Virus record (IMG/VR): IMGVR_UViG_2724679172_000013
DNA: 10,968 nt
Strand: one strand, 5' to 3'
DNA from: a virus
Lineage: Duplodnaviria; Heunggongvirae; Uroviricota; Caudoviricetes
The position numbers and the translations under genes were made by a program. The notes below the pieces were generated by a model. That model saw only the letters and a program-made list of their open reading frames with translations, was not told the DNA's origin and did not search any database. Below, in pieces: positions 1-10,968 of this stretch (position 1 is the stretch's first letter; every line of letters starts with the position of its first letter).

Positions 1-197
1 GCAACATCCGCTTTCCTAACCAAATGATTGAACAAATTAACATTGCTCTTGATCAAAAAGGGTCCGGGAATTTCTCAGCCTGGGTCATTGAAGCCTGCCG
101 CCGAAGACTGTGCTCAGAAAAAAGAGTTTCGCCTGAAGCAAACAAAGAAAAGAGTGACATTACTGAATTGCTCAGAAAGCAGGTCAGACCAGATTGA
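1..197 (+). CDS. 5'-partial small DNA-binding protein, YlcI-like (DUF3950, ribbon-helix-helix-like); gene starts upstream of the window
   Basis: Reading frame is open from position 3 to TGA at 195-197 (...NIRFPNQMIEQINIALDQKGSGNFSAWVIEACRRRLCSEKRVSPEANKEKSDITELLRKQVRPD). The N-terminal beta-strand-like motif NIRFPNQ precedes the only in-window ATG (24), so the true start is probably upstream. Family recalled from memory, not searched. Confidence 0.5.
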   Translation, partial: NIRFPNQMIEQINIALDQKGSGNFSAWVIEACRRRLCSEKRVSPEANKEKSDITELLRKQVRPD

Positions 198-254
198 AGC
201 AATTTAGATAATCGTGCAGACTAGGTACCTTCATATCACATGGAAGGTACTACA

Positions 255-665
255 ATGGCTCAGGTTGCCATTTTTAAACAAATATTCGATAAAGTGCGAA
301 ATAATTTAAACTATCACTGGTTTTATTCTGAACTAAAACGTCACAATGTCTCACATTACATTTACTATTTAGCCACAGAGAATATTCATCTTGTTCTTGA
401 AAACGATAATACGGTTTTAATAAAAGGACAGAGTAAGGTTGTAAATGTAAGATTTTCAAAAAATAAATGCCTTATAGAAGCCACCTTAAAAGGATTCAAA
501 TCAGGAGAGTTATCATTTTACGAATACAGGAAAAATCTTGCTACAGCAGGGGTTTTCAGATGGATTACAAATATCCACGAAAACAAAAGGTATTACTATA
601 CCTTTGATAATTCATTACTCTTTACTGAGAACATTCAGAACACTACACAAATATTTCCGCACTAA
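255..665 (+). CDS. ybcV: DUF1398-family prophage protein (YbcV-like), about 136 aa
   Basis: ORF 240..665; preferred start is the second ATG at 255 ([11 protein letters not shown]...), which has GGAAGG 7 nt upstream. Protein recognised as YbcV/DUF1398-like from the DLP12 prophage. Confidence 0.8.
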
Positions 666-921
666 ATCATAACGTCCGGTTTCTTCCGTGCCAGAACCGG
701 ACTCGCTGGCATGATGAAATATGTGTACCCGGTAACCCCGGTGTGCATCGTTATTGATTATTCCCGCACACTCGCGCAGAAGGAGTTCCCCGTCGGGCTA
801 CGGTCTCTGTTAATACGGGAATACGGCGACGATACAGCGCATGATGTGTCAGGCTTGAATACCTTTATCCTTTAAAAGGGATATCAGTTAAGTTATCCCG
901 TGTAGGGTATAAGCCATTATC

Positions 922-948
922 AAAGCCACTCTGTAGGAAGTGGCTTTT
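922..948 (+). terminator. candidate intrinsic terminator (plus strand)
   Basis: Inverted repeat aaagccact / agtggcttt (8-nt loop) followed by TTTT on the plus strand. Weak T-tract. Confidence 0.35.
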
Positions 949-959
949 GTAATGGCAAT

Positions 960-982
960 AAAAAGCCCCGCGAATGCGAGGC
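960..982 (-). terminator. candidate intrinsic terminator (minus strand) about 175 nt downstream of Rz/Rz1
   Basis: Minus-strand RNA: GCCUCGC-AUUC-GCGGGGC (7-bp GC-rich stem, one G-U) followed by UUUUUAUU. Confidence 0.45.
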
Positions 983-1156
983 TAAATCCTGGTATTTGTA
1001 ATGACTGGCTCTTATCTCAACGCAGCCCCTTACCGCGCGCAAAATGCTCAATATCAAGCATCAGCAATGAGATGTTTAATCTGGATTCACTCCAGAAGTG
1101 AGCACCACCCTGTCTACAGAGCCAGATGTGAAGGATGATGAGTAAAATTATCGCTA

Positions 1157-1624
1157 TCATCGAAGGCATTGCGTCCTGATGTATTCCTGAAGCGTTCTCA
1201 ATGCTGTTTGGTCGCGGATAATTCCGTCCCGGATACCGAGAACGTTTCGTCCAGCAACTGGAGAGAGTTCGACGGTGGCATCATTGCCCATGCCGGAGGC
1301 GCTGGAGGTTTCGGCTGAGGATGGCACAGGGCATTTTCCTTTGACGAGCACCCGACCACCATTATCAAGCTTGCGCCGAAGAGCATCATTTTCAGCTTTC
1401 GCATCAGCTAACTCCTTCGTGTATTTATCATCGAGTGCATCAGCATCACGCTGGCGCTGCTGCATGTCAGTAATGGTGGCGTTCGCCTTCTCCAGTTCAC
1501 TGGCCTTGTTATCGCGCTGTTCTTTGTAGGCGATTGCATTATCACGGTAATGATTAACAGCCCATGACAGGCAGACGATGATGCAGATAACCAGAGCGGA
1601 GATAATCGCGGTTACTCTGCTCAT
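1157..1624 (-). CDS. Rz: Rz i-spanin (inner-membrane spanin subunit)
   Basis: ORF 1157..1636; preferred start [21 protein letters not shown] at 1624, whose ATG overlaps the endolysin TGA (ATGA). N-terminal TM helix then a charged coiled-coil-like periplasmic domain; sits downstream of holin and endolysin. Confidence 0.85.
1198..1404 (-). CDS. Rz1: Rz1 o-spanin lipoprotein, embedded in the +1 frame of Rz
   Basis: ORF lies entirely inside Rz in another frame. [21 protein letters not shown] has a signal peptide and lipobox (VVGC), followed by a proline-rich stretch ([11 protein letters not shown]) typical of Rz1. Exact start ATG uncertain. Confidence 0.75.
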
Positions 1625-2118
1625 TGTTTCCCCCACAAACAGACTTCACGCTCAATCTCACGGCGAGTCATCAGTCCTTTCCATTGATTACCGCCAGCGT
1701 ATGTCCAGCGCCGTAGCTGATCACATGCGCCTTTAATATCACCCTGGTTTATTTTGCGAAGAAGCGTCGATGTTCTGAAATTGCCAGCACCCACGTTGTA
1801 GACGAACGAGTAAAGAGCGCCGCGCGTTGTTTCCGGTATATCGACTTTGATGTACCGGTTAATTTGTCTGGCGACAGTGGCAAGGTCTTTATTCAGGAGG
1901 GCTTTGCACTCTGCTTCGGTATACGTTTTACCGGGAATGATGTCTTTTCCTGTATGCCCGTAACATACAGTCCATACACCAACTATGTCTTTGTAAGGAT
2001 TATGTCTCACACCTTCCAGACCATCGTTACCACTTGGGCCAGTGATTAACACAGATGCTATAGCAATAGCCCCGCCACCAATAGCAGCAGCAACAGCTTT
2101 TCGTAATGATGGAGGCAT
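1621..2118 (-). CDS. R: SAR endolysin (phage 21 R-type, T4-lysozyme-like glycoside hydrolase)
   Basis: 165 aa. N-terminal Gly/Ala-rich weakly hydrophobic signal-anchor-release segment ([20 protein letters not shown]), then E-x8-D-x5-T catalytic spacing ([22 protein letters not shown]). Start ATG overlaps holin stop (TAATG). Confidence 0.9.
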
Positions 2119-2333
2119 TATTCACCTCTCGCAGCCTTGCGCTTATCTTCTTTAATCTTGAAATAAAGGTTTGTCAGGTACGTCAGCAGGCCAAATACCA
2201 GGCTACCCAGCACACCTATTGCTGCCCACTGTGAGGGCGTGACTTTATCGAGCAGCTGTAAAAACCAGTACCCGGCACTACCTGCTGAGGTGCCATAGGC
2301 GACACCCGTTGTTAACTTATCCATGGATTTCAT
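2118..2333 (-). CDS. S: class II holin / pinholin (S21-like), 71 aa, with dual-start motif
   Basis: MKSMDK... has two in-frame starts (M1 and M4) as in holin/antiholin pairs. Two TM segments and a charged C-terminus ([13 protein letters not shown]). GAGGTGGGG RBS upstream. First gene of the S-R-Rz/Rz1 cassette. Confidence 0.9.
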
Positions 2334-2444
2334 AACCCCACCTCGCAGACAAAGCGGGTGTAAATTGAGGGAATACTACGAAACGTAACAGACTCGGAGT
2401 CAGTGAATAACTCAGGTATTGGGTTATCAGCTAATATCGAGACT

Positions 2445-2478
2445 CAAAAAATGGAAAAACCCGCTCGACGGCGGGTTT
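2445..2478 (-). terminator. candidate intrinsic terminator about 110 nt upstream of the holin start (tR'-like position)
   Basis: Minus-strand RNA: CCCGC-CGUCGA-GCGGG followed by UUUUUCCAUUUUUU. Sits between the AT-rich nmpC upstream region and the holin gene. Confidence 0.45.
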
Positions 2479-2906
2479 AAGCTGTGTGACGAAGTAACCA
2501 CTCTTAACAGCATAACCAATTTTTTACGTACGTAAACCACTAAATGATATTTGCGAGAATGCTACCGAGTATTGAAAACACCACTACAAATACATAAGCA
2601 AATCTCAACAAATAACCAACAAATAATTTCCAGCGTTATTTTTAGCCAATTTAAATTGAACCTTCAAATTATAGAGCACTTATAAATAACAGCCATTAAT
2701 ATAAATTGGCTAATAGATTTATTTTTATTCAGCCAAGAGCCATGAATAGGATTCGATAGAAAAAAGTTCAGATAAAAATAGAGATCTACTTCACAAATTA
2801 AACGAGAAACCAAAACTTACATCTTGAAATAATCACATTGATTAGATGAATATTTATCGCGCAGTGACATCATTTTTTAATAATAGTTCAAAAAAAAGGG
2901 CTCACG

Positions 2907-3989
2907 ATGAAAAAATTAACAGTGGCAATTTCTGCTGTAGCTGCATCAGTACTGATGGCGATGTCTGCTCAGGCAGCTGAAATTTATAATAAAGACAGTA
3001 ACAAGCTGGATCTGTACGGGAAAGTTAATGCTAAGCACTACTTCTCCTCTAATGATGCAGATGATGGTGATACTACTTATGCCCGTCTTGGCTTCAAAGG
3101 TGAAACCCAAATCAACGATCAACTGACTGGTTTCGGTCAGTGGGAATATGAATTCAAAGGCAACCGCGCTGAATCTCAAGGTTCTTCCAAAGACAAAACC
3201 CGTCTTGCATTTGCAGGCCTGAAATTTGGTGATTACGGCTCAATCGATTACGGCCGTAACTACGGTGTAGCATACGACATCGGTGCGTGGACTGACGTCC
3301 TGCCAGAATTCGGTGGTGATACCTGGACCCAAACAGATGTGTTCATGACTGGTCGCACTACTGGTGTTGCAACTTATCGTAACAACGACTTCTTTGGTCT
3401 GGTCGATGGCCTGAACTTTGCTGCTCAGTATCAGGGTAAAAATGACCGCACTGACGTAACTGAAGCCAATGGTGATGGTTTCGGTTTCTCCACTACTTAT
3501 GAGTATGAAGGATTCGGCGTGGGTGCAACCTATGCTAAATCAGATCGCACTGACGGTCAGGTCGCCTATGGTAAGAGCAAATTCAATGCCTCCGGCAAAA
3601 ATGCGGAAGTATGGGCTGCAGGCCTGAAATATGATGCGAACAATATCTATCTGGCTACCACATATTCTGAAACTCAGAATATGACCGTTTTTGGTAATAA
3701 CCATATTGCAAACAAAGCACAAAACTTTGAAGCAGTAGCACAATATCAGTTTGACTTCGGTCTGCGCCCATCTGTTGCTTACCTTCAGTCAAAAGGTAAA
3801 GACCTTGGTGTTCATGGTGACCGAGACTTAGTCAAGTATGTCGATGTCGGTGCTACTTACTACTTTAATAAAAACATGTCCACTTTTGTTGATTACAAAA
3901 TCAACTTAATTGACGATAGTAAGTTTACCAAAACAGCTGGTATTGATACTGATGACATCGTTGCTGTAGGTCTGGTTTACCAGTTCTAA
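2907..3989 (+). CDS. nmpC: outer-membrane general porin (OmpC/OmpF/PhoE family; prophage NmpC/OmpD-like), intact
   Basis: 360 aa. Signal peptide [23 protein letters not shown] then AEIYNKD; porin hallmarks including C-terminal ...[17 protein letters not shown] 7 nt upstream. Location between Q and the lysis genes on the opposite strand matches prophage nmpC. Confidence 0.9.
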
Positions 3990-4005
3990 TCTGATTACGA
4001 AAAAG

Positions 4006-4039
4006 ATATGTTGCGGGAGGCGTTGCCTCCCCAACATAT
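4006..4039. other. strong GC-rich hairpin at the nmpC 3' end; terminator-like on the minus strand
   Basis: atatgttg-c-gggaggc / gcctccc-caacatat, about 15 bp of stem with a 3-nt loop. On the minus strand it is followed by CUUUUUC (plus 3999-4005). Two more hairpins lie at about 4041-4060 and 4065-4088. Confidence 0.4.
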
Positions 4040-4126
4040 AAGTGGCTCCCTCAAGCCACTTCCTTTAGAAGCACAACCTTGCTTCTAACTATATAAACCT
4101 TCTGTTATATATTACCCTTTATTTTT

Positions 4127-4152
4127 GGGGGCGTCTCAACGCCCCATTTTTA
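4127..4152 (+). terminator. candidate intrinsic terminator for nmpC (plus strand)
   Basis: GGGGCG-tctcaa-CGCCCC stem-loop followed by ATTTTTAATAATTTTT on the plus strand. The minus-strand side is followed by an A-run, so it reads as a plus-strand terminator. Confidence 0.55.
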
Positions 4153-4178
4153 ATAATTTTTAGTAAACAATTGGCATA

Positions 4179-4562
4179 TTAATTAGAGTTATTAACAACG
4201 ATATCCATCTCTAACCGGATATCTAATGCCATTAACATCCCTTCAATTATGCCCTCAGCCTTTTGTAACCTTTTCCCGATATAACCATCAGAGCAGCAAT
4301 GCTTACCTGCCAGTGACATGAATGTCATACCGACTACATAATAATCTACTAATAAATCGTGCAAATCGCTGTTGTTCTTTTTCAGACGGGCCATGCACCC
4401 GCAAATGATCATCGCGTCATCGTCACAACATTGCGGGCGAGATTTTACTTTTGAAGGAATTAATCCCTTAAAACCGGCGGCAATGGACGACCAGGTCACA
4501 TCTTCATGATTATTAGCCGCCCACGCTCCCCAACGCTCAAGAACCATCTGAATATCACGCAT
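4179..4562 (-). CDS. Q: late-gene antiterminator Q (phage 21/82-type, QuuD-like)
   Basis: ORF 4179..4577; preferred start [14 protein letters not shown] (127 aa). Cys-rich motifs ([20 protein letters not shown]). Position immediately downstream of rusA/ylcG and before the lysis cassette. Confidence 0.85.
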
Positions 4563-4647
4563 CAACTTACTCCACAAAACTCAGACCAGAACGCCAATTA
4601 CAAGCAAAAATCAACAAAACAGTATTAGTTGATTGTTATCTCTGACT

Positions 4648-4788
4648 TCATACTCCTGCTCCTGTCAGTGTTTTGGCGTAATTCTTCAGTATTCGGTAAT
4701 CGGTCAAAACAGAGCCGGGGAAACGATATAAGCGCAGACGCCCCCAGCGGTGGCGAAGAAGTTCTGCCATATTAAACTCAAACATCAT
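4648..4788 (-). CDS. ylcG: small prophage protein YlcG-like (46 aa); not in the supplied ORF track
   Basis: Hand translation of the minus strand: [45 protein letters not shown]. Its ATG overlaps the rusA stop (ATGA coupling). Matches the rusA-ylcG-Q order of DLP12-type prophages. Confidence 0.6.
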
Positions 4789-5147
4789 TCATTCCCCATT
4801 TCGGTGATGGTCAGTTCCAGCCTCCCACCTTTGGTAACAGGCATCTTCACAACGCGGTAATCAACGACCTGAGCATCATCCAGCCAGAAACCTGCTTTAG
4901 TGAGTGCGTCAAAAGCGGCTTTTTGCAGATTATCCAGGTCACGGCGACGGCGATCCGGCATGTGGCACTCAATGCGGATTTTCACAGGCATAGCCAGGCC
5001 GATATCCAGCATTGCGTTTTTAATGATTCGGGCGACGTTATCGCGGTATGCCTGCCCCTCTGCGCTGACGTGCGTGCGCCCGCGATTATGGCGGTAATAG
5101 CGATTATTGCTCGGAGGCCAGGGTAGTGTGATGTGGTAAGTATTCAC
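4785..5147 (-). CDS. rusA: RusA Holliday-junction resolvase
   Basis: 120 aa, [37 protein letters not shown]..., with acidic catalytic motif region [28 protein letters not shown]. Apparent GTG start overlapping the ybcO stop (GTGA). Confidence 0.93.
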
Positions 5148-5434
5148 GCCTTAATTACCCTCTCTTTCAGCCAGATAACCTGCGTTCTCGCCATACCTTC
5201 CAGCGCGCATTCTTTTGCATATCCAGCGTCAACAAAATGCGTGCGGCGGTCGATTTCGTCGTGGCAGGCAGAACATGCAATGGTGGCAATCAGGTCTGGC
5301 GGTTTGATACCGGTACCGCACAATCCAGCCAGCCGGATATGTGCCAGTACAGACGTCTCAGAATTGCCATTACATACGCCAGGGATTCTTACCTGGCATT
5401 CCCGACCACGCGCTGCTTTTCTCAAATCAGCCAT
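5144..5434 (-). CDS. ybcO: YbcO-like (DUF1364) Cys-rich putative nuclease
   Basis: ORF 5144..5473; preferred start [24 protein letters not shown] (96 aa). Four-Cys pattern (C..C ... C..C). Between ninE and rusA as in DLP12. Confidence 0.8.
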
Positions 5435-5597
5435 GATTCCTCCTTGCTGCCAGTCGCAACCATTTTTTATCAACCAAGCTGGCGGTATATCCGAGCAGTG
5501 TTGGTATTTCGGATGGCTTCAGCTCAGGTTTACGCTTACGACGATTTGGTACTCTGTAGATGTGTCCGTTCATGACACGAATAAGCGGTGTAGCCAT
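5427..5597 (-). CDS. ninE: NinE-family protein (56 aa); not in the supplied ORF track
   Basis: Hand translation: [59 protein letters not shown] overlaps the ybcN stop (TAATG) and its 3' end overlaps the ybcO start. Confidence 0.7.
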   Translation of the reverse strand: MATPLIRVMNGHIYRVPNRRKRKPELKPSEIPTLLGYTASLVDKKWLRLAARRNHG

Positions 5598-6052
5598 TAC
5601 GCCTCCTGCTTGTCGCGCAGCAGCTGGAACTCGCAGCTCTGCGGAATAGTCAGGTGGCAGCCAATATTCACCGCCCAGGCTTCAACCTTACACAGGAAGA
5701 TATACATCTCTCCGGTATCAAGATCGGAGGTATGGCGTAACGACTGGATAGTGGTGATCTCACCGGTTACGACATCAACCAGGTCTTTGGTTTCATAACC
5801 GAGATATGTGTGTTTGAGAGCATCTTTTACCCAAGCTGGAGTGGCGAACGTTTTACCCCTGCTGATGAGGTATTCACTGATTTCGCTGTACCACATGTGG
5901 CTGAGTGCATTCTGGGAAAGACTGCGTTTCTCACGCCACGGTTTAAGCACCATGCGAAAGCATTTGCCTTCCTCCAGATAAGGCTGGATCTGCTGGCCGA
6001 TAGCGGTGAAGTTACCACGATGCAATTTGATGCCGTCTTGTGGGAGGTTCAC
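5597..6052 (-). CDS. ybcN: YbcN-like nin-region protein (151 aa)
   Basis: [39 protein letters not shown]...; apparent GTG start with GGAGG 6 nt upstream. First gene of a translationally coupled ybcN-ninE-ybcO-rusA-ylcG string. Confidence 0.8.
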
Positions 6053-6081
6053 GCTTCACCTCCGCAGAGGTCAAACGCTGG

Positions 6082-6170
6082 ATGCAAAAAATCGCAGGTG
6101 CATCTCTGCATCTGTGAAGGGAGAAGAGAGTTTGGATTGTATGTGCGCATAAACGTCCCCGTTTAGCGCA
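6082..6170. repeat. direct repeat copy A (89 bp, about 93% identical to 8016..8104); contains a palindrome and a minus-strand hairpin plus T-run
   Basis: Direct comparison of the two sequences shows 6 mismatches in 89 nt. Weaker similarity continues about 30-50 nt toward higher coordinates. Lies immediately upstream of the ybcN RBS. Confidence 0.85.
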
Positions 6171-6246
6171 GAAGTCACCGGAGTTGTTCAAGCTCCAATG
6201 GCATGATTATGGCTGGTTGATTATTGGAAATCAAATGTGCTGAAAA

Positions 6247-6756
6247 TTAGTCTGCCAAGTCTTCCTCAGTCGCAACTGGGTAATTCCAAATATCAAAAAA
6301 AGCTATAGCCTCCTGCCATTTGCTCCATAAGTTATCAAGTACTTGTGTAGGTTCCGTACTTTTAAAAACAGAATCAGCCGCATCACCGTTATGAACTTCC
6401 TCGTACAGTTCCATTATTAGCAGATTAACAAAGTACTGTTTCAACATTAATGCCTGATTACCTTCTTTCTGCTGGCTATCCTGCTTGATGAGCTCCATCG
6501 CCCGTACTAGGCACCTGATGATATCCGCTGCATCATTAACGCTCCATTCAGATCCGCGCTTATCTTTAGCTGATGAATTGGCTCTCTCAGCGCAAGCCTT
6601 TAAAGACTCATAAAGGTAAACTCTATTTTGTAGCTGCAGCGCTTTTTTTGACGTGCACCAACTTGCAAGCGCCGACCCCGCTGCGGCTAATGTGCCAAAC
6701 GCAGAAATGCCTGCTGCTATTGCACTTAAGTCGGCACTGTCAAAGTTCCACATCAT
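6247..6756 (-). CDS. hypothetical protein with N-terminal hydrophobic (TM-like) segment, 169 aa
   Basis: MMWNFDSADLSAIAAGISAFGTLAAAGSALASWC... then a mostly polar/acidic C-terminal domain. AAGGTG RBS 6 nt upstream. AT-rich upstream region with a perfect TATAAT. No family recognised. Confidence 0.6.
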   Translation of the reverse strand: MMWNFDSADLSAIAAGISAFGTLAAAGSALASWCTSKKALQLQNRVYLYESLKACAERANSSAKDKRGSEWSVNDAADIIRCLVRAMELIKQDSQQKEGNQALMLKQYFVNLLIMELYEEVHNGDAADSVFKSTEPTQVLDNLWSKWQEAIAFFDIWNYPVATEEDLAD

Positions 6757-6931
6757 CGTTACACCTTATATAAACACCCCTCAGTAATATCCAATAAGGT
6801 ATGTGAACAATCAATATAATTTATATCCGTATCGGCACATAGCGATTTTAATGCTACTGATAATGGTATCTTTTAGATTATATCGTCCAGTTCCAGTACC
6901 CGTATTTTATGAAATGGACTCGCACATTACC

Positions 6932-6972
6932 AAAAAAAATGCCAGCACTTCCGTCATCGCAGAATGCTGGCA
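6932..6972 (-). terminator. candidate intrinsic terminator 20 nt after the Bro-N-like gene
   Basis: Minus-strand RNA: UGCCAGCA ... UGCUGGCA (8-bp stem, long loop) followed by UUUUUUUU. Confidence 0.55.
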
Positions 6973-6991
6973 GTATTTCTAACTAGTGACT

Positions 6992-7600
6992 TTATTGCAA
7001 CAGATTCTGACGGAAATATGGTAACACACGACTCCACTTATCATCCTGCCACGGTTGGAATTTTACATGCGCCGTTTCTCTGGCAAGGATTTCTCGCGCC
7101 CTGTTGAGTATCCGAGGATATTCTTGTTCGATTGAAGTGAATCTACCTGCTTCGCGATGCTCTGCGACCTGAAGAAGGGGCGTAACGTTCTGGCAGGCGG
7201 TTAACATCGTATCACTTGCTCGCCATAACCAGGCGAGTGTGCAAAGTTCGTTATCAGTGAATTGTTTTGTGATTGGGGATTGTTGAACTTCTCGATCGAG
7301 AATATCCAGAACCCAGCGGCGGAATTCTTTGGCCACAGGAGTACGAGCAAACATGGCGATCAAATGGGCTCCGCGAAGGCTAAATACTCGAGACTCCTGC
7401 ATTCCACGAGGGGTGGTCACTTTGACCACCCTTGTCATCATATCTGTGAATTCATCTGAGTGCCGAGAGTAAATGCGCTGAACTGCTTTATCGTCCGCAT
7501 ATTCCAGTGCTAAACCAACTTCAGTGGCAGTAAGCCAAATTCTGTTATTGTGGCAAATCGGGGTAAACGTCGTTTTGTGGAATGCTAATTGAGTAGTCAT
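6992..7600 (-). CDS. Bro-N / KilA-N-like N-terminal domain protein (Roi/antirepressor-like), 202 aa
   Basis: N-terminal region (FHKTTFTPICHNNRIWLTATEVGLALEY...VFSLRGAHLIAMFARTPVAKEFRRWVLDIL) matches the Bro-N-type pattern by eye. GAGGTGA RBS 7 nt upstream. Domain call not verified by HMM. Confidence 0.7.
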   Translation of the reverse strand: MTTQLAFHKTTFTPICHNNRIWLTATEVGLALEYADDKAVQRIYSRHSDEFTDMMTRVVKVTTPRGMQESRVFSLRGAHLIAMFARTPVAKEFRRWVLDILDREVQQSPITKQFTDNELCTLAWLWRASDTMLTACQNVTPLLQVAEHREAGRFTSIEQEYPRILNRAREILARETAHVKFQPWQDDKWSRVLPYFRQNLLQ

Positions 7601-8015
7601 AGTATCACCTCATCAGGTTAACCATCACCACCAACGACGCCAATCGACTGGTGGTGAACTGTGTAAGGTTGGCGTAACCGGCTACTCAAACCCGGCGCTT
7701 CCGAAGAAGCCCTCACACAGCCCACCATAATTTGGGCATAGCCGTGCTTAGCGCACAAAAAAACCGCTTAACGCGGTATGCGTTGAGTAGTATCCCGGGA
7801 CGCCAATCCCGTGTGCCGATTTTGCGGCAACGCACAGAATATAGCGCCGGATAAATCATGTCGTCAACCCCAGTAAATGGACACCATGATGATCACATCC
7901 ATAGCTGCTACAACAGTTACAACTACCTCAGGCCAAAACATAACGATTTCCATATCACCTTTAGCCGCCAGACGAATAGAGACTCCCAATTCTGGCTGTC
8001 GAAGTAAAACACCGA

Positions 8016-8104
8016 ATGTAAAAAATCGTAGGTGCATTTCTGCATCTGTGAATGGAGATGAGAGTTTGGATTGTGTGTGCGCATAAACGTCCCCGTTTAG
8101 CGCA
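8016..8104. repeat. direct repeat copy B (89 bp, about 93% identical to 6082..6170)
   Basis: Same element as copy A, same orientation, about 1.85 kb away. Carries the same palindrome gcgcataaacgtccccgtttagcgc and a minus-strand hairpin plus T6. Confidence 0.85.
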
Positions 8105-8291
8105 ACCCCACCACCGGGTGTTCAGGCCGACAGTAACTATATTATTCCCTACTGATTTTTGAAAATCAAAGGTCTTTATACGTCACACGAGAGCAAATAT
8201 TTCCGAAGAAGAAACCTTTCACCTTGAAAGGATAAAGAGTTCATTTCATAAATTGAAATATTCAATAAGAATATTGCAAAAAATGAAATTA

Positions 8292-8320
8292 TTTACTAGC
8301 GAGTCTATCTAACTGATAAT
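8292..8320 (+). promoter_or_regulatory. candidate sigma70 promoter for the 500-aa gene
   Basis: TTTACT (8292-8297), 17-bp spacer, GATAAT (8315-8320), inside a strongly AT-rich block upstream of ATG 8413. Sequence-only prediction. Confidence 0.3.
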
Positions 8321-8412
8321 TATGAAGATTGTAAGCGGTAGCAATCACCCGCATACACATTGAACAGGATTTAATACAAAACGTCTTAAATTGTCCGTAA
8401 GGAATAGCACGA

Positions 8413-9915
8413 ATGACTCAAACTCCTCTATTACTTGCAATCATATTTTTATTGGTTGTTCTTGTTCTTTATATAGCTGCAATCAAACGCATCAAAAAAA
8501 TACAATTAGAATTAAGTGATAGCAATCAAAAAAATGAAGAATACAAATCTCGCTTTGCAGATTATTTTAATGTAGAAGAAGAATGTAAGAAGCTTATTGA
8601 GAAAACAGAGCAAGAATGCTCCATAATAAAAGAAGAATCCCTAAAAGTAAAAGAAAATGCCAATAATGAACTAACAAACACCATTGAAAAAATGGATGGT
8701 ATCAATAAACAAATCCAAGAGCTAAGAAGAACTTATAAAGAGAAGAAAGAAATATATGATAAACTAGTAAGGCAAATTTCTATTTATTCAGAAGATGTTG
8801 AGCTAGCCGAACTAGGATTTTACGAACCTCATTTTAATTTTGAAGATTCAGAGCAATTTAAAAACAAAATAAAATCCATCAGGGATGAACAGAAATTAAT
8901 GCTGCGGGATAAAACCCACTCTGGCGCAGTATATTGTACAACCCAATGGACTGTTGAAGGCTCTCGAGCAGAGGGTAAAAAAATGACAGACAGAAATATC
9001 AGGCTAACTACTAGAGCATTTAATAATGAATGTGATGCTGCAATTAGCAATTGCACGTGGAAAAACATCACTAAAATGGAAGAACGCATCACAAAGGCAT
9101 TTGAGGCCATAAATAAACTAAACGAGCAAAATCACATATATATAAACACTAAATACCTCAATAAAAAACTTGAGGAATTGTGGCTTACCCATGAATATCG
9201 TGAGCAAAAACAGAAAGAAAAAGAAGAACAGGCAGAAATAAGGGCACAAATGAGAGAGGAGGAGCGTGCACAACGAGAAATAGAAAAGGCCATGCAAGAC
9301 GCAGAGGCAGAAGAGCGCCGTTATAAAAAAGCAATTGAAGCTGCAAGAAAGGAAATGGAAAAAGTTACTGGTGACATGAAGCAGCGCCTCGAAAATCGCA
9401 TTGCCGAACTAGAACAGAGTTTGTCGCAGGCTGAATCAAAGCATCAAAGAGCATTATCCATGGCACAACAAACCAAACAAGGTCATGTTTATATTATTTC
9501 GAACATAGGTTCTTTTGGGGAGAATGTTTATAAAATAGGCATGACACGACGTCTTGATCCGCAAGACCGTGTAAATGAGCTCGGTGATGCATCTGTTCCT
9601 TTTATTTTTGATGTACATGCCATGATTTATTCGGAGGACGCTCCATCATTAGAAAAAAAACTACATGATGTCTTCGATAAAAAGAGAGTCAATCTTGTAA
9701 ATCGTAGAAAAGAGTTTTTCTATGTTACTCTGGATGAGATCAAAGAAGCTGTTAAAAAACACTCTGATTCAGAAATTGAATTTATTGAGACAGCAGTCGC
9801 AAAAGACTTTAATGAGTCATTGGCTATTCGTAATCATGAAAATAAAAAAAGTGACAACAGCAACTCATCAATTATACCTGAGCGAAAAACCCCAGAGTTT
9901 GCAGATGCAATTTAA
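8413..9915 (+). CDS. membrane-anchored coiled-coil protein with C-terminal GIY-YIG-like (T5orf172-type) putative nuclease domain; candidate anti-phage defence / abortive-infection protein
   Basis: 500-aa ORF, opposite strand to flanking phage genes, visibly AT-rich. N-terminal TM helix (LLLAIIFLLVVLVLYIAAI), two long K/E-rich coiled-coil-like segments, and C-terminal GHVYIISNIGSFGENVYKIGMTRRLDPQDRVNELG. AAGGA RBS upstream. Confidence 0.85.
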   Translation: MTQTPLLLAIIFLLVVLVLYIAAIKRIKKIQLELSDSNQKNEEYKSRFADYFNVEEECKKLIEKTEQECSIIKEESLKVKENANNELTNTIEKMDGINKQIQELRRTYKEKKEIYDKLVRQISIYSEDVELAELGFYEPHFNFEDSEQFKNKIKSIRDEQKLMLRDKTHSGAVYCTTQWTVEGSRAEGKKMTDRNIRLTTRAFNNECDAAISNCTWKNITKMEERITKAFEAINKLNEQNHIYINTKYLNKKLEELWLTHEYREQKQKEKEEQAEIRAQMREEERAQREIEKAMQDAEAEERRYKKAIEAARKEMEKVTGDMKQRLENRIAELEQSLSQAESKHQRALSMAQQTKQGHVYIISNIGSFGENVYKIGMTRRLDPQDRVNELGDASVPFIFDVHAMIYSEDAPSLEKKLHDVFDKKRVNLVNRRKEFFYVTLDEIKEAVKKHSDSEIEFIETAVAKDFNESLAIRNHENKKSDNSNSSIIPERKTPEFADAI

Positions 9916-10163
9916 TTAATTTGTAGTAGCAATAAAGCAGGCATCGTTGAGAATATTTTGTCAGCGATGCTTACTTCTCTAACAAAAACGGTGATTACCA
10001 ACGAACTAACGGACTTCAGGTAATCATAAGACAAATGGAACGACTCTCCGGTGATTAGATCCCTGCAATAACAGTAATTTTCTACTAACTGAAAAATCTT
10101 TAACTGCCGCTCCTATTTCTAAGCTGACTGCTAGATTACATGGTGTGTTACCGATGAAAACCG

Positions 10164-10466
10164 TCACAGCAAGTTTAAGTTCATATCTCCATACACTGCC
10201 AACACTCGTTTCATCGCGGCACTCTGGCGACACTCCTTGAAAATCAGATTCGTGCTCACCTTTCCTTCCCGTTCTTCCCTGGTAGCGAACCGGTAATACA
10301 CCGTTCGCCAGACCTTACCATCAACGACCAAGATTCCTGCCCGTGCCATTTTAGCCGCAGCCTGATTTATACTGGTTACTGTTGCGCCTGTTACCGCAGC
10401 AACGTCCTGCGCACAGAAGCTCTTATGCGTCCCCAGGTAATGAATAATTGCCTCTTTGCCCGTCAT
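10164..10466 (-). CDS. ren: Ren-like protein
   Basis: MTGKEAIIHYLGTHKSFCAQDVAAVTGATVTSINQAAAKMARAGILVV... recognised as lambda Ren-like. ATG overlaps the P stop (ATGA), as in lambda. Confidence 0.85.
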   Translation of the reverse strand: MTGKEAIIHYLGTHKSFCAQDVAAVTGATVTSINQAAAKMARAGILVVDGKVWRTVYYRFATREEREGKVSTNLIFKECRQSAAMKRVLAVYGDMNLNLL

Positions 10467-10968
10467 ACAGTTGCTCCTTTCAGTCCGAACTTCGCTTTGA
10501 TTTCTGCGATCTTCGCCAGAGCCTGTGCACGATTTAGAGGTCTACCGCCCATGACAGGAAGTTGTTTTACTGGTTCAGGTATCGCCTCACCACGGTTAAT
10601 TCGCGCGGTCATACAAGTCAGTTCATCGGCAGCCTTGCGCCGTAATTCCGCATCAGTAAGCGCATTGGCCCGCATGTTCTGATACAGGTTGGTAACCAGC
10701 CAGTAGTGCGCGTTTGATTTCCACGGATAAGACTCTGCATCCGGATACAGGCCACGCTTCCGGCAATAGTTTGATTTCCACGGATAAGACTCTGCATCCG
10801 GATACAGGCCACGCTTCCGGCAATACTCGTAAACCATATCAACCAGCTCGCTGGTGTTTGGTAGTCCGGCAATAACGGATGCTTCTTCCCGGCACCAGGC
10901 TACAAACTGTCCGGGGGATGGCAGGAATGGTCGATTCTGCCGACGGGCTACGCGCATTCCTGCGTTAA
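10463..10968 (-). CDS. P: replication protein P (lambda P-like), 3' portion; ORF continues beyond the window edge
   Basis: ...RQNRPFLPSPGQFVAWCREEASVIAGLPN...MGGRPLNRAQALAKIAEIKAKFGLKGATV matches the lambda P C-terminal region from memory. Frame stays open upstream of the first in-window ATG to the window end. Contains a 19-aa in-frame tandem duplication. Confidence 0.85.
   Translation of the reverse strand, partial: NAGMRVARRQNRPFLPSPGQFVAWCREEASVIAGLPNTSELVDMVYEYCRKRGLYPDAESYPWKSNYCRKRGLYPDAESYPWKSNAHYWLVTNLYQNMRANALTDAELRRKAADELTCMTARINRGEAIPEPVKQLPVMGGRPLNRAQALAKIAEIKAKFGLKGATV
10712..10825. repeat. perfect tandem duplication, 2 x 57 bp, in frame within P
   Basis: 10712..10768 and 10769..10825 are identical by direct reading (gtttgatttccacggataagactctgcatccggatacaggccacgcttccggcaata). 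Encodes YCRKRGLYPDAESYPWKSN twice. Confidence 0.9.

Follow-up and report, generated by a model that had tools for sequence, protein, structure and literature searches.

What is encoded by a 500-amino acid (aa) open reading frame (ORF) that runs antisense to its immediate neighbours, all of them on the minus strand, in a lambdoid prophage? We analysed this ORF (positions 8413 to 9915, plus strand; ATG start, 500 codons and a stop) in a DNA stretch of 10,968 nucleotides (nt) from a virus of the Caudoviricetes (IMG/VR record IMGVR_UViG_2724679172_000013). The whole stretch is called the window in the following, and all positions refer to it. A preliminary description, made from the letters of the DNA, had proposed that the ORF is a single-gene anti-phage system, namely a membrane-tethered, nuclease-like protein carried as a prophage moron, and had left the question whether this architecture belongs to a named family. 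The architecture has indeed been named, initially as PD-lambda-1 (PMC9519451) and later as SNIPE (PMC13190303). The proposal was borne out by a full-length match of the protein to PD-Lambda-1 in PADLOC and by its identity to the characterised protein.

Identity of the 500-aa ORF

A search against the PADLOC models, which the preliminary description had recommended, revealed full-length homology to PD-Lambda-1. Residues 1-485 of the protein aligned to positions 1-485 of 491 of model PDLC03976 (E 1.9e-198), and a second PD-Lambda-1 model, PDLC03977, was also matched over its full length (E 7e-195). In PHROG the protein matched phrog_1847 (E 7e-196). An individual alignment showed 500 of 500 identical aa for the coding sequence (CDS) annotated as PD-lambda-1 in Escherichia phage PhiR26_1, a phage that, judging from its name, probably originates from E. 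coli strain ECOR26. PhiR26_1 was the single record in the phage collection that matched positions 8100-9960. Over these 1861 bp the DNA differs from it at one base upstream of the ORF, position 8221 (A in the window, G in PhiR26_1), which lies in a small inverted repeat (8215-8231) about 70 bp 5' of the candidate promoter. The prophage around the gene is 97% identical to PhiR26_1 over positions 1377-10768 and more diverged further left.

Vassallo et al. (2022, Nat Microbiol, PMC9519451) discovered PD-lambda-1 when they put E. coli fosmid libraries through a functional selection; the name SNIPE was given to it later by Saxton et al. (Nature 2026, PMC13190303). The source clone came from ECOR26 (contig QOXL01000020, 49060-50562; CDS RCP76574.1) and carries an ORF of 1503 bp (PMC9519451), the same length as the ORF in the window. 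Published HHpred analysis placed DUF4041 at residues 197-252, T5orf172 at 357-448 and MUG113 at 373-449 (PMC9519451), and our Pfam coordinates lie within one residue of these. The nine residues numbered in the SNIPE paper (E414, E223, W257, L253, E264, K305, I308, T319 and N250) are all present at the same positions. The ECOR26 protein thus shares with ours its length of 500 aa, the order of a transmembrane (TM) helix, DUF4041 and a GIY-YIG/T5orf172 domain, and the lambdoid prophage context (PMC9519451, PMC13190303).

At least 1000 contigs encode the exact protein, which falls in a cluster of 975 members at 90% identity. The next cluster is just 57% identical, so that any E. coli protein with the numbering of the SNIPE paper must be this allele. 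Judged by residue numbering, ORF length, domains and identity to the PhiR26_1 CDS, the window protein is the characterised SNIPE (PD-λ-1), in its type allele. RefSeq names the product of the same DNA 'DUF4041 domain-containing protein' and, in recent records, 'SNIPE associated domain-containing protein'. A search of NCBIfam revealed no model for the SNIPE family and returned spurious coiled-coil matches alone. Gene, name, phenotype and mechanism are already published and PADLOC detects SNIPE; the gene itself holds nothing new.

Protein architecture and family conservation

The preliminary description had read the protein as an N-terminal TM helix followed by long coiled coils, a DUF4041-like middle region and a C-terminal segment of GIY-YIG/T5orf172 type. 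Hydropathy analysis, Pfam searches and an AlphaFold2 (AF2) model (built from 32 sequences; mean predicted local distance difference test score (pLDDT) 76) recovered each of these parts. The 19-residue Kyte-Doolittle window with the highest mean (3.37) covers residues 6-24 (LLLAIIFLLVVLVLYIAAI), and the protein has no comparable second segment. In the AF2 model the N-terminal helix begins at residue 5. It is followed by a long helix (residues 54-133), the globular DUF4041 region (approximately 143-255), further long helices (246-355) and the C-terminal domain, whose topology is beta-beta-alpha-beta-alpha. The most confident part of the model lies between residues 150 and 260 (pLDDT 91-97).

Residues 198-252 matched PF13250 (DUF4041; E 1.2e-19, 70.4 bits versus a cut-off of 27). 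At the C-terminus, residues 357-449 matched PF10544 (T5orf172; E 6.9e-17, 62.3 bits versus a cut-off of 20) and residues 373-449 matched PF13455 (MUG113; E 7e-19, 68.6 bits versus a cut-off of 22.3). Both of these families are members of the GIY-YIG clan, in agreement with the published HHpred analysis (PMC13190303). A database search returned 8000 scored candidates, all at E <= 1e-5, and those listed carry all three Pfam domains. The possibility that the ORF is a chance product of AT-rich DNA is excluded by these thousands of homologues.

An alignment of 32 family sequences (51-57% identity) showed an invariant nuclease core consisting of G357-H-V-Y360, K374, G376-M-T-R-R380 (with R379), R386, E389, H402, E414, N427 and N430, whereas Y373 alternates with F. 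A hydrophobic helix is present at the N-terminus of 30 of 31 homologues; its position is kept and its sequence is not conserved. The residues which the SNIPE paper ties to tape-measure specificity vary in the alignment, and position 257 is most often Arg. The invariant core, Arg257 and the position of the helix agree with the statements of the SNIPE paper, in which W257R is described as common among homologues (PMC13190303).

The assignment of the C-terminal domain to the GIY-YIG superfamily rests on the T5orf172 and MUG113 matches, on the pattern of conserved residues and on the published HHpred and AlphaFold3 analysis together with the E414A phenotype (PMC13190303). In a structure search with the full-length AF2 model only coiled coils were matched. 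With phmmer, neither the full protein nor the C-terminal domain gave a significant match to PDB sequences. A comparison by hhalign of the domain alignment with I-TevI and the UvrC N-terminal domain was likewise not significant (probability 0.2% for I-TevI); this is a weak test, as each was represented by a single sequence.

Mode of action and alternative explanations

The experiments that bear on the mode of action were published for the identical protein. Fusions to PhoA-LacZalpha located the N-terminus of SNIPE on the periplasmic side of the membrane and its DUF4041 and nuclease domains on the cytoplasmic side, and the protein co-fractionates with membranes (PMC13190303). Defence is lost with E414A or with deletion of DUF4041, and E414A also removes the nuclease toxicity of the protein (PMC13190303). 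Deletion of the TM helix rendered SNIPE toxic and nucleoid-associated and led to double-strand breaks in the chromosome, all dependent on E414 (PMC13190303), which implies that the membrane anchor prevents autoimmunity. In cells with SNIPE, adsorption and the amount of injected 32P-labelled phage DNA were unchanged, yet this DNA was fragmented, and ParB-marked phage genomes did not appear (PMC13190303). An induced resident prophage was unaffected (PMC13190303). SNIPE is found in association with ManYZ as well as with tape measure proteins of phages, and its DUF4041 domain binds both DNA and the tape measure protein (PMC13190303). For defence against lambda-type phages SNIPE relies largely on ManYZ, while ManYZ-independent targeting extends to many siphoviruses and to no myoviruses or podoviruses (PMC13190303). 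SNIPE homologues also protect S. thermophilus from its siphoviruses (bioRxiv 10.1101/2024.10.22.618286).

SNIPE is thus almost certainly a membrane-anchored defence nuclease that cuts phage DNA at injection. In this reading the N-terminal helix serves as an inner-membrane anchor that leaves few residues on the periplasmic side and the remainder in the cytoplasm, and anchoring holds the nuclease off the chromosome in an auto-inhibited state. SNIPE associates with the mannose permease ManYZ, the route by which the genomes of lambda-like phages enter. Binding of DUF4041 to DNA and to the invading phage's tape measure protein then places the C-terminal GIY-YIG-type nuclease, with Glu414, to cut the genome in mid-injection. 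Infected cells survive, and phage genomes that are resident or already established are spared. Our analysis contributes the gene, its domains and conserved residues, its prophage context and the finding that its product is identical to the characterised protein; topology, nuclease dependence, cleavage at injection, the ManYZ and tape measure association and host range come from the published experiments.

The preliminary description had offered defence, superinfection exclusion or abortive infection as possible modes of action, of which direct defence stood and abortive infection did not. An abortive system, in which the tethered nuclease is released or activated upon infection, degrades host DNA and kills the cell, would fit the toxicity and the chromosomal breaks caused by SNIPE without its TM helix (PMC13190303), and many prophage morons are abortive infection genes. 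The published defence is, however, direct and non-abortive: infected cells remained unlysed and grew to confluence and cultures survived a high multiplicity of infection, unlike those with the abortive infection control PD-lambda-3, and it was the labelled phage DNA that was destroyed rather than the viability of the host that was lost (PMC13190303). We therefore consider abortive infection very unlikely. Exclusion at the inner membrane without nucleolysis, as by T4 Imm or P22 SieA, would leave T5orf172 as a DNA-binding module alone. The membrane anchor, the prophage location and the activity at the injection step are all compatible with such a mode, database names frequently describe T5orf172 as 'DNA-binding', and our own fold search gave no confirmation of a nuclease fold. 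Against it stand the invariance of the catalytic-type residues across the 32 homologues, the loss of defence with E414A and the fragmentation of 32P-labelled phage DNA whose entry is unchanged (PMC13190303), and it appears extremely improbable.

Some homologues are named 'chromosome segregation ATPase', 'ParA' or 'SbcCD ATPase subunit' in databases, names that would fit a structural maintenance of chromosomes (SMC)-like, chromosome-partition or structural coiled-coil protein with no role in defence. A Pfam search at E <= 1 revealed no SMC_N, AAA or ATPase head domain, neither Walker A nor Walker B motifs were seen, and the NCBIfam model ASRP reached 18.6 bits versus a cut-off of 300, with matches on low-complexity charged helices. 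A free-standing GIY-YIG homing endonuclease is a poor description: such enzymes lack a TM anchor and DUF4041, both of which SNIPE has, no sign was seen that the gene moves into a cognate target, and Pfam detected no PF01541 match, just the divergent T5orf172 and MUG113 families. With a defence phenotype published for the identical protein, we regard a function of this kind outside defence as having a negligible probability.

Comparison with other systems

Several phage- or prophage-encoded proteins, among them SieA and SieB of P22 and Imm and Sp of T4, are located in the membrane, act at DNA entry and guard the lysogen against related phages. No nuclease activity is known for them, and they show no homology to SNIPE. 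SNIPE differs from these classical exclusion proteins in that its catalytic Glu is needed and that the DNA is degraded instead of its passage being blocked.

The PD-Lambda-1 homologues of S. thermophilus belong to the same named family and, as single genes under their native promoters, protect against siphoviruses, in their case of other phage genera and in a Gram-positive host (bioRxiv 10.1101/2024.10.22.618286). Two of these alleles are 98.5% identical yet unequal in activity, which implies that specificity is allele-dependent. The membrane-embedded systems Zorya and Kiwa follow the same principle as SNIPE in that self and non-self are told apart by membrane location at DNA entry (PMC12904381). 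Both are multi-protein systems, whereas SNIPE is a single protein: Zorya combines the ZorAB motor with a nuclease, and KwaB of Kiwa binds DNA and does not cut it. In sequence SNIPE is unrelated to either of them (ZorA3, E = 0.12, not significant). PADLOC PDC-S57 shares a T5orf172-type domain with SNIPE (E 1.7e-18, residues 354-468). For PDC-S57 and other T5orf172/MUG113 proteins this is a match at the level of the domain alone; they are shorter (models of 212-245 positions) and lack the TM helix and DUF4041.

Composition and expression signals

The G+C content of the SNIPE ORF is 35.1%, with 34.7% in the upstream region (8105-8412) and 38.3% downstream (9916-10163), compared to 50.5% in ren, 52.9% in P and 45.6% in the rest of the window. 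Together with the ORF list these figures confirm an AT-rich gene opposite to its flanking genes. The promoter-like and ribosome-binding site (RBS) signals of the preliminary description are also present, as an AGGA 9 nt 5' of the ATG and a sigma-70-like site with 9 of 12 consensus positions (TTTACT-17-GATAAT); the latter is statistically unremarkable. Scanning revealed 12 promoter sites versus 7.7 +/- 3.0 expected in shuffled sequence, hence no enrichment, so that the site at 8292-8320 counts as a candidate promoter. We place the native promoter of SNIPE tentatively at about this site.

The terminator scan gave 3 sites versus 2.5 in shuffles, again no enrichment, and did not call the hairpin between the convergent SNIPE and ren genes (9935-9976). 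By RNA folding this hairpin is stable (-24.6 kcal/mol, z = -3.8 versus shuffles), and it may serve as a terminator. The published PD-lambda-1 clone contains 62 bp on one flank of the ORF and 282 bp on the other (PMC9519451), and its expression was driven by the native promoter. If the 282 bp are the upstream side, the clone would correspond to positions 8131-9977 of the window (upstream part 8131-8412). In this orientation it would hold the candidate promoter and end just beyond the hairpin, which would then lie inside the 62-bp flank. SNIPE is probably expressed constitutively from the lysogen.

Genomic setting and distribution

The window lies in a prophage of the DLP12/lambda type with the gene order cI, cro, YdaT-domain gene, O, P, ren, SNIPE, antirepressor-like gene, 169-aa ORF, ybcN, ninE, ybcO, rusA, ylcG, Q, porin, holin, lysozyme and Rz. 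The YdaT-domain gene is annotated as cII in PhiR26_1. SNIPE is antisense to the early-right transcription unit. Its insertion between ren and the nin-type genes, as it had been described, is correct on the ren side; on the nin side the isrK and C4 RNAs, the antirepressor-like gene and the 169-aa ORF intervene before ybcN/ninB, ninE, ybcO, rusA, Q and the lysis genes follow leftwards. The coordinates of SNIPE, its parts and its neighbours are given in Table 1.

Table 1. Positions of SNIPE, its domains and expression signals, and of neighbouring genes and RNAs in the window.
Feature	Position	Strand	Evidence or remark
SNIPE / PD-lambda-1 CDS (RefSeq WP_000195116.1)	8413..9915	+	ORF, PADLOC, PHROG, RefSeq annotation
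N-terminal single-pass TM anchor, approximately residues 5-25	8425..8487	+	Hydropathy, AF2 helix, homologues
DUF4041 core, residues 198-252	9004..9168	+	Pfam PF13250
C-terminal T5orf172/MUG113 (GIY-YIG superfamily) nuclease domain, residues 357-449	9481..9759	+	Pfam
Codon of catalytic Glu414	9652..9654	+	Residue numbering; invariant in alignment; published E414A
AT-rich upstream region with probable native promoter (8292-8320) and RBS (8400-8403)	8105..8412	+	Scan, G+C content
Stable hairpin, candidate terminator	9935..9976	.	RNA folding energy versus shuffles
ren	10164..10466	-	Immediate right neighbour of SNIPE
Replication gene P	10463..10957	-	Right of SNIPE, after ren
isrK RNA (RF01394)	7757..7829	-	Rfam, 58.7 bits; unannotated in RefSeq
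C4 antisense RNA (RF01695)	7647..7732	-	Rfam, 74.8 bits; unannotated in RefSeq
Bro-N/P22AR antirepressor-like gene	6992..7600	-	Left of SNIPE
169-aa ORF	6247..6756	-	Left of SNIPE

A survey of 5426 complete E. coli genomes showed the DNA of positions 8100-9960 in 131 (approximately 2.4%), always in the chromosome and with at least 99% identity in 109 of them. Positions 1-10768 of the window are 99.99% identical to E. coli 2017C-4173W12 (NZ_CP030768.1). In strain LP-26-E1-261 (NZ_CM144251.1; positions 2814-5515 of the analysed locus) an IS5 element interrupts SNIPE at the start of the DUF4041 core, at about window positions 9011-9014; the gene is annotated as two fragments and is a natural knockout. 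The E. coli allele is essentially clonal, and its next relatives, at 57% identity, come mostly from Vibrio, Shewanella and Photobacterium. Together with the G+C content of 35% this suggests a recent acquisition of SNIPE from a lineage of lower G+C content.

Prophages with ren were found in 2884 genomes. Homology of ren-containing prophages to the window breaks off close to the 3' end of ren. The adjoining slot, positions 8105-10163 in the window, holds SNIPE here and emrE-ybcK(-ybcL-ybcM) in strains 55989 and CEC13091; it is empty in SCU-171, where ren abuts ninB, and holds small hypothetical genes in Sakai Sp15. The differing content among strains marks it as a variable cargo position. A wider interpretation would make the ren-nin junction of DLP12-type prophages an exchangeable slot for cargo or defence genes, and would see in the 169-aa ORF another gene of defence or counter-defence, usually a companion of SNIPE; as a whole we judge it unlikely.

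Neighbouring RNA and antirepressor module and other features of the window

The isrK and C4 RNAs lie directly 5' of the Bro-N/P22AR gene. On the minus strand, the sigma-70-like site that scored best in the region (7867 to 7838, 10 of 12 positions) ends approximately 9 nt before the 5' end of isrK. This arrangement of RNAs and antirepressor-like gene resembles an antirepressor control module of the P1/P7 immI type or of the Gifsy-1 isrK-anrP type. The module is separate from SNIPE. A requirement of SNIPE for it is excluded, since SNIPE alone is sufficient when carried on a plasmid, and since strain 55989 has the module, with the 169-aa ORF, but no SNIPE. For the 169-aa ORF itself (RefSeq WP_000990010.1, 'hypothetical protein') neither Pfam nor PADLOC revealed a match.

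The isrK/C4, antirepressor-like and 169-aa ORF module is flanked by a direct repeat of 104 bp (6067-6170 and 8001-8104, 89% identical), which spans the start and the upstream region of the small ORF preceding ybcN/ninB. Probably recombination joined parts of the lambdoid mosaic at this repeat. Full-length copies of the module between the two repeats (6171-8000) were detected in 112 complete E. coli genomes, versus 131 for SNIPE.

In P, on the minus strand, a perfect 57-bp tandem duplication (10712-10825) encodes an in-frame repeat of 19 aa (YCRKRGLYPDAESYPWKSN, twice). Neither NZ_CP030768.1 nor NZ_CM144251.1, whose sequence is otherwise the same in that stretch, has the duplication; it may be genuine variation or an error of assembly.

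As described earlier, SNIPE is an AT-rich moron on the opposite strand; it is, however, not the only one in the window. A DUF1398 (YbcV-like) gene (240-665, plus strand, 31.5% G+C) forms an AT-rich insert among minus-strand phage genes, and an OmpC/Lc-type porin gene (2907-3989, plus strand) lies in an insert (2334-3989) with a 570-bp upstream region of 34% G+C. Both are classic lambdoid morons.

Significance

In many database records SNIPE still goes under an obsolete or erroneous name, for example 'DUF4041 domain-containing protein', 'chromosome segregation ATPase' or 'ParA'. The present case shows that a reading of the raw sequence can pick out a single-gene defence system from its architecture alone. 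It also provides a clean description of SNIPE in its native context, as a moron of a lambdoid prophage that is placed at the ren-nin junction and runs antisense to the early-right operon.

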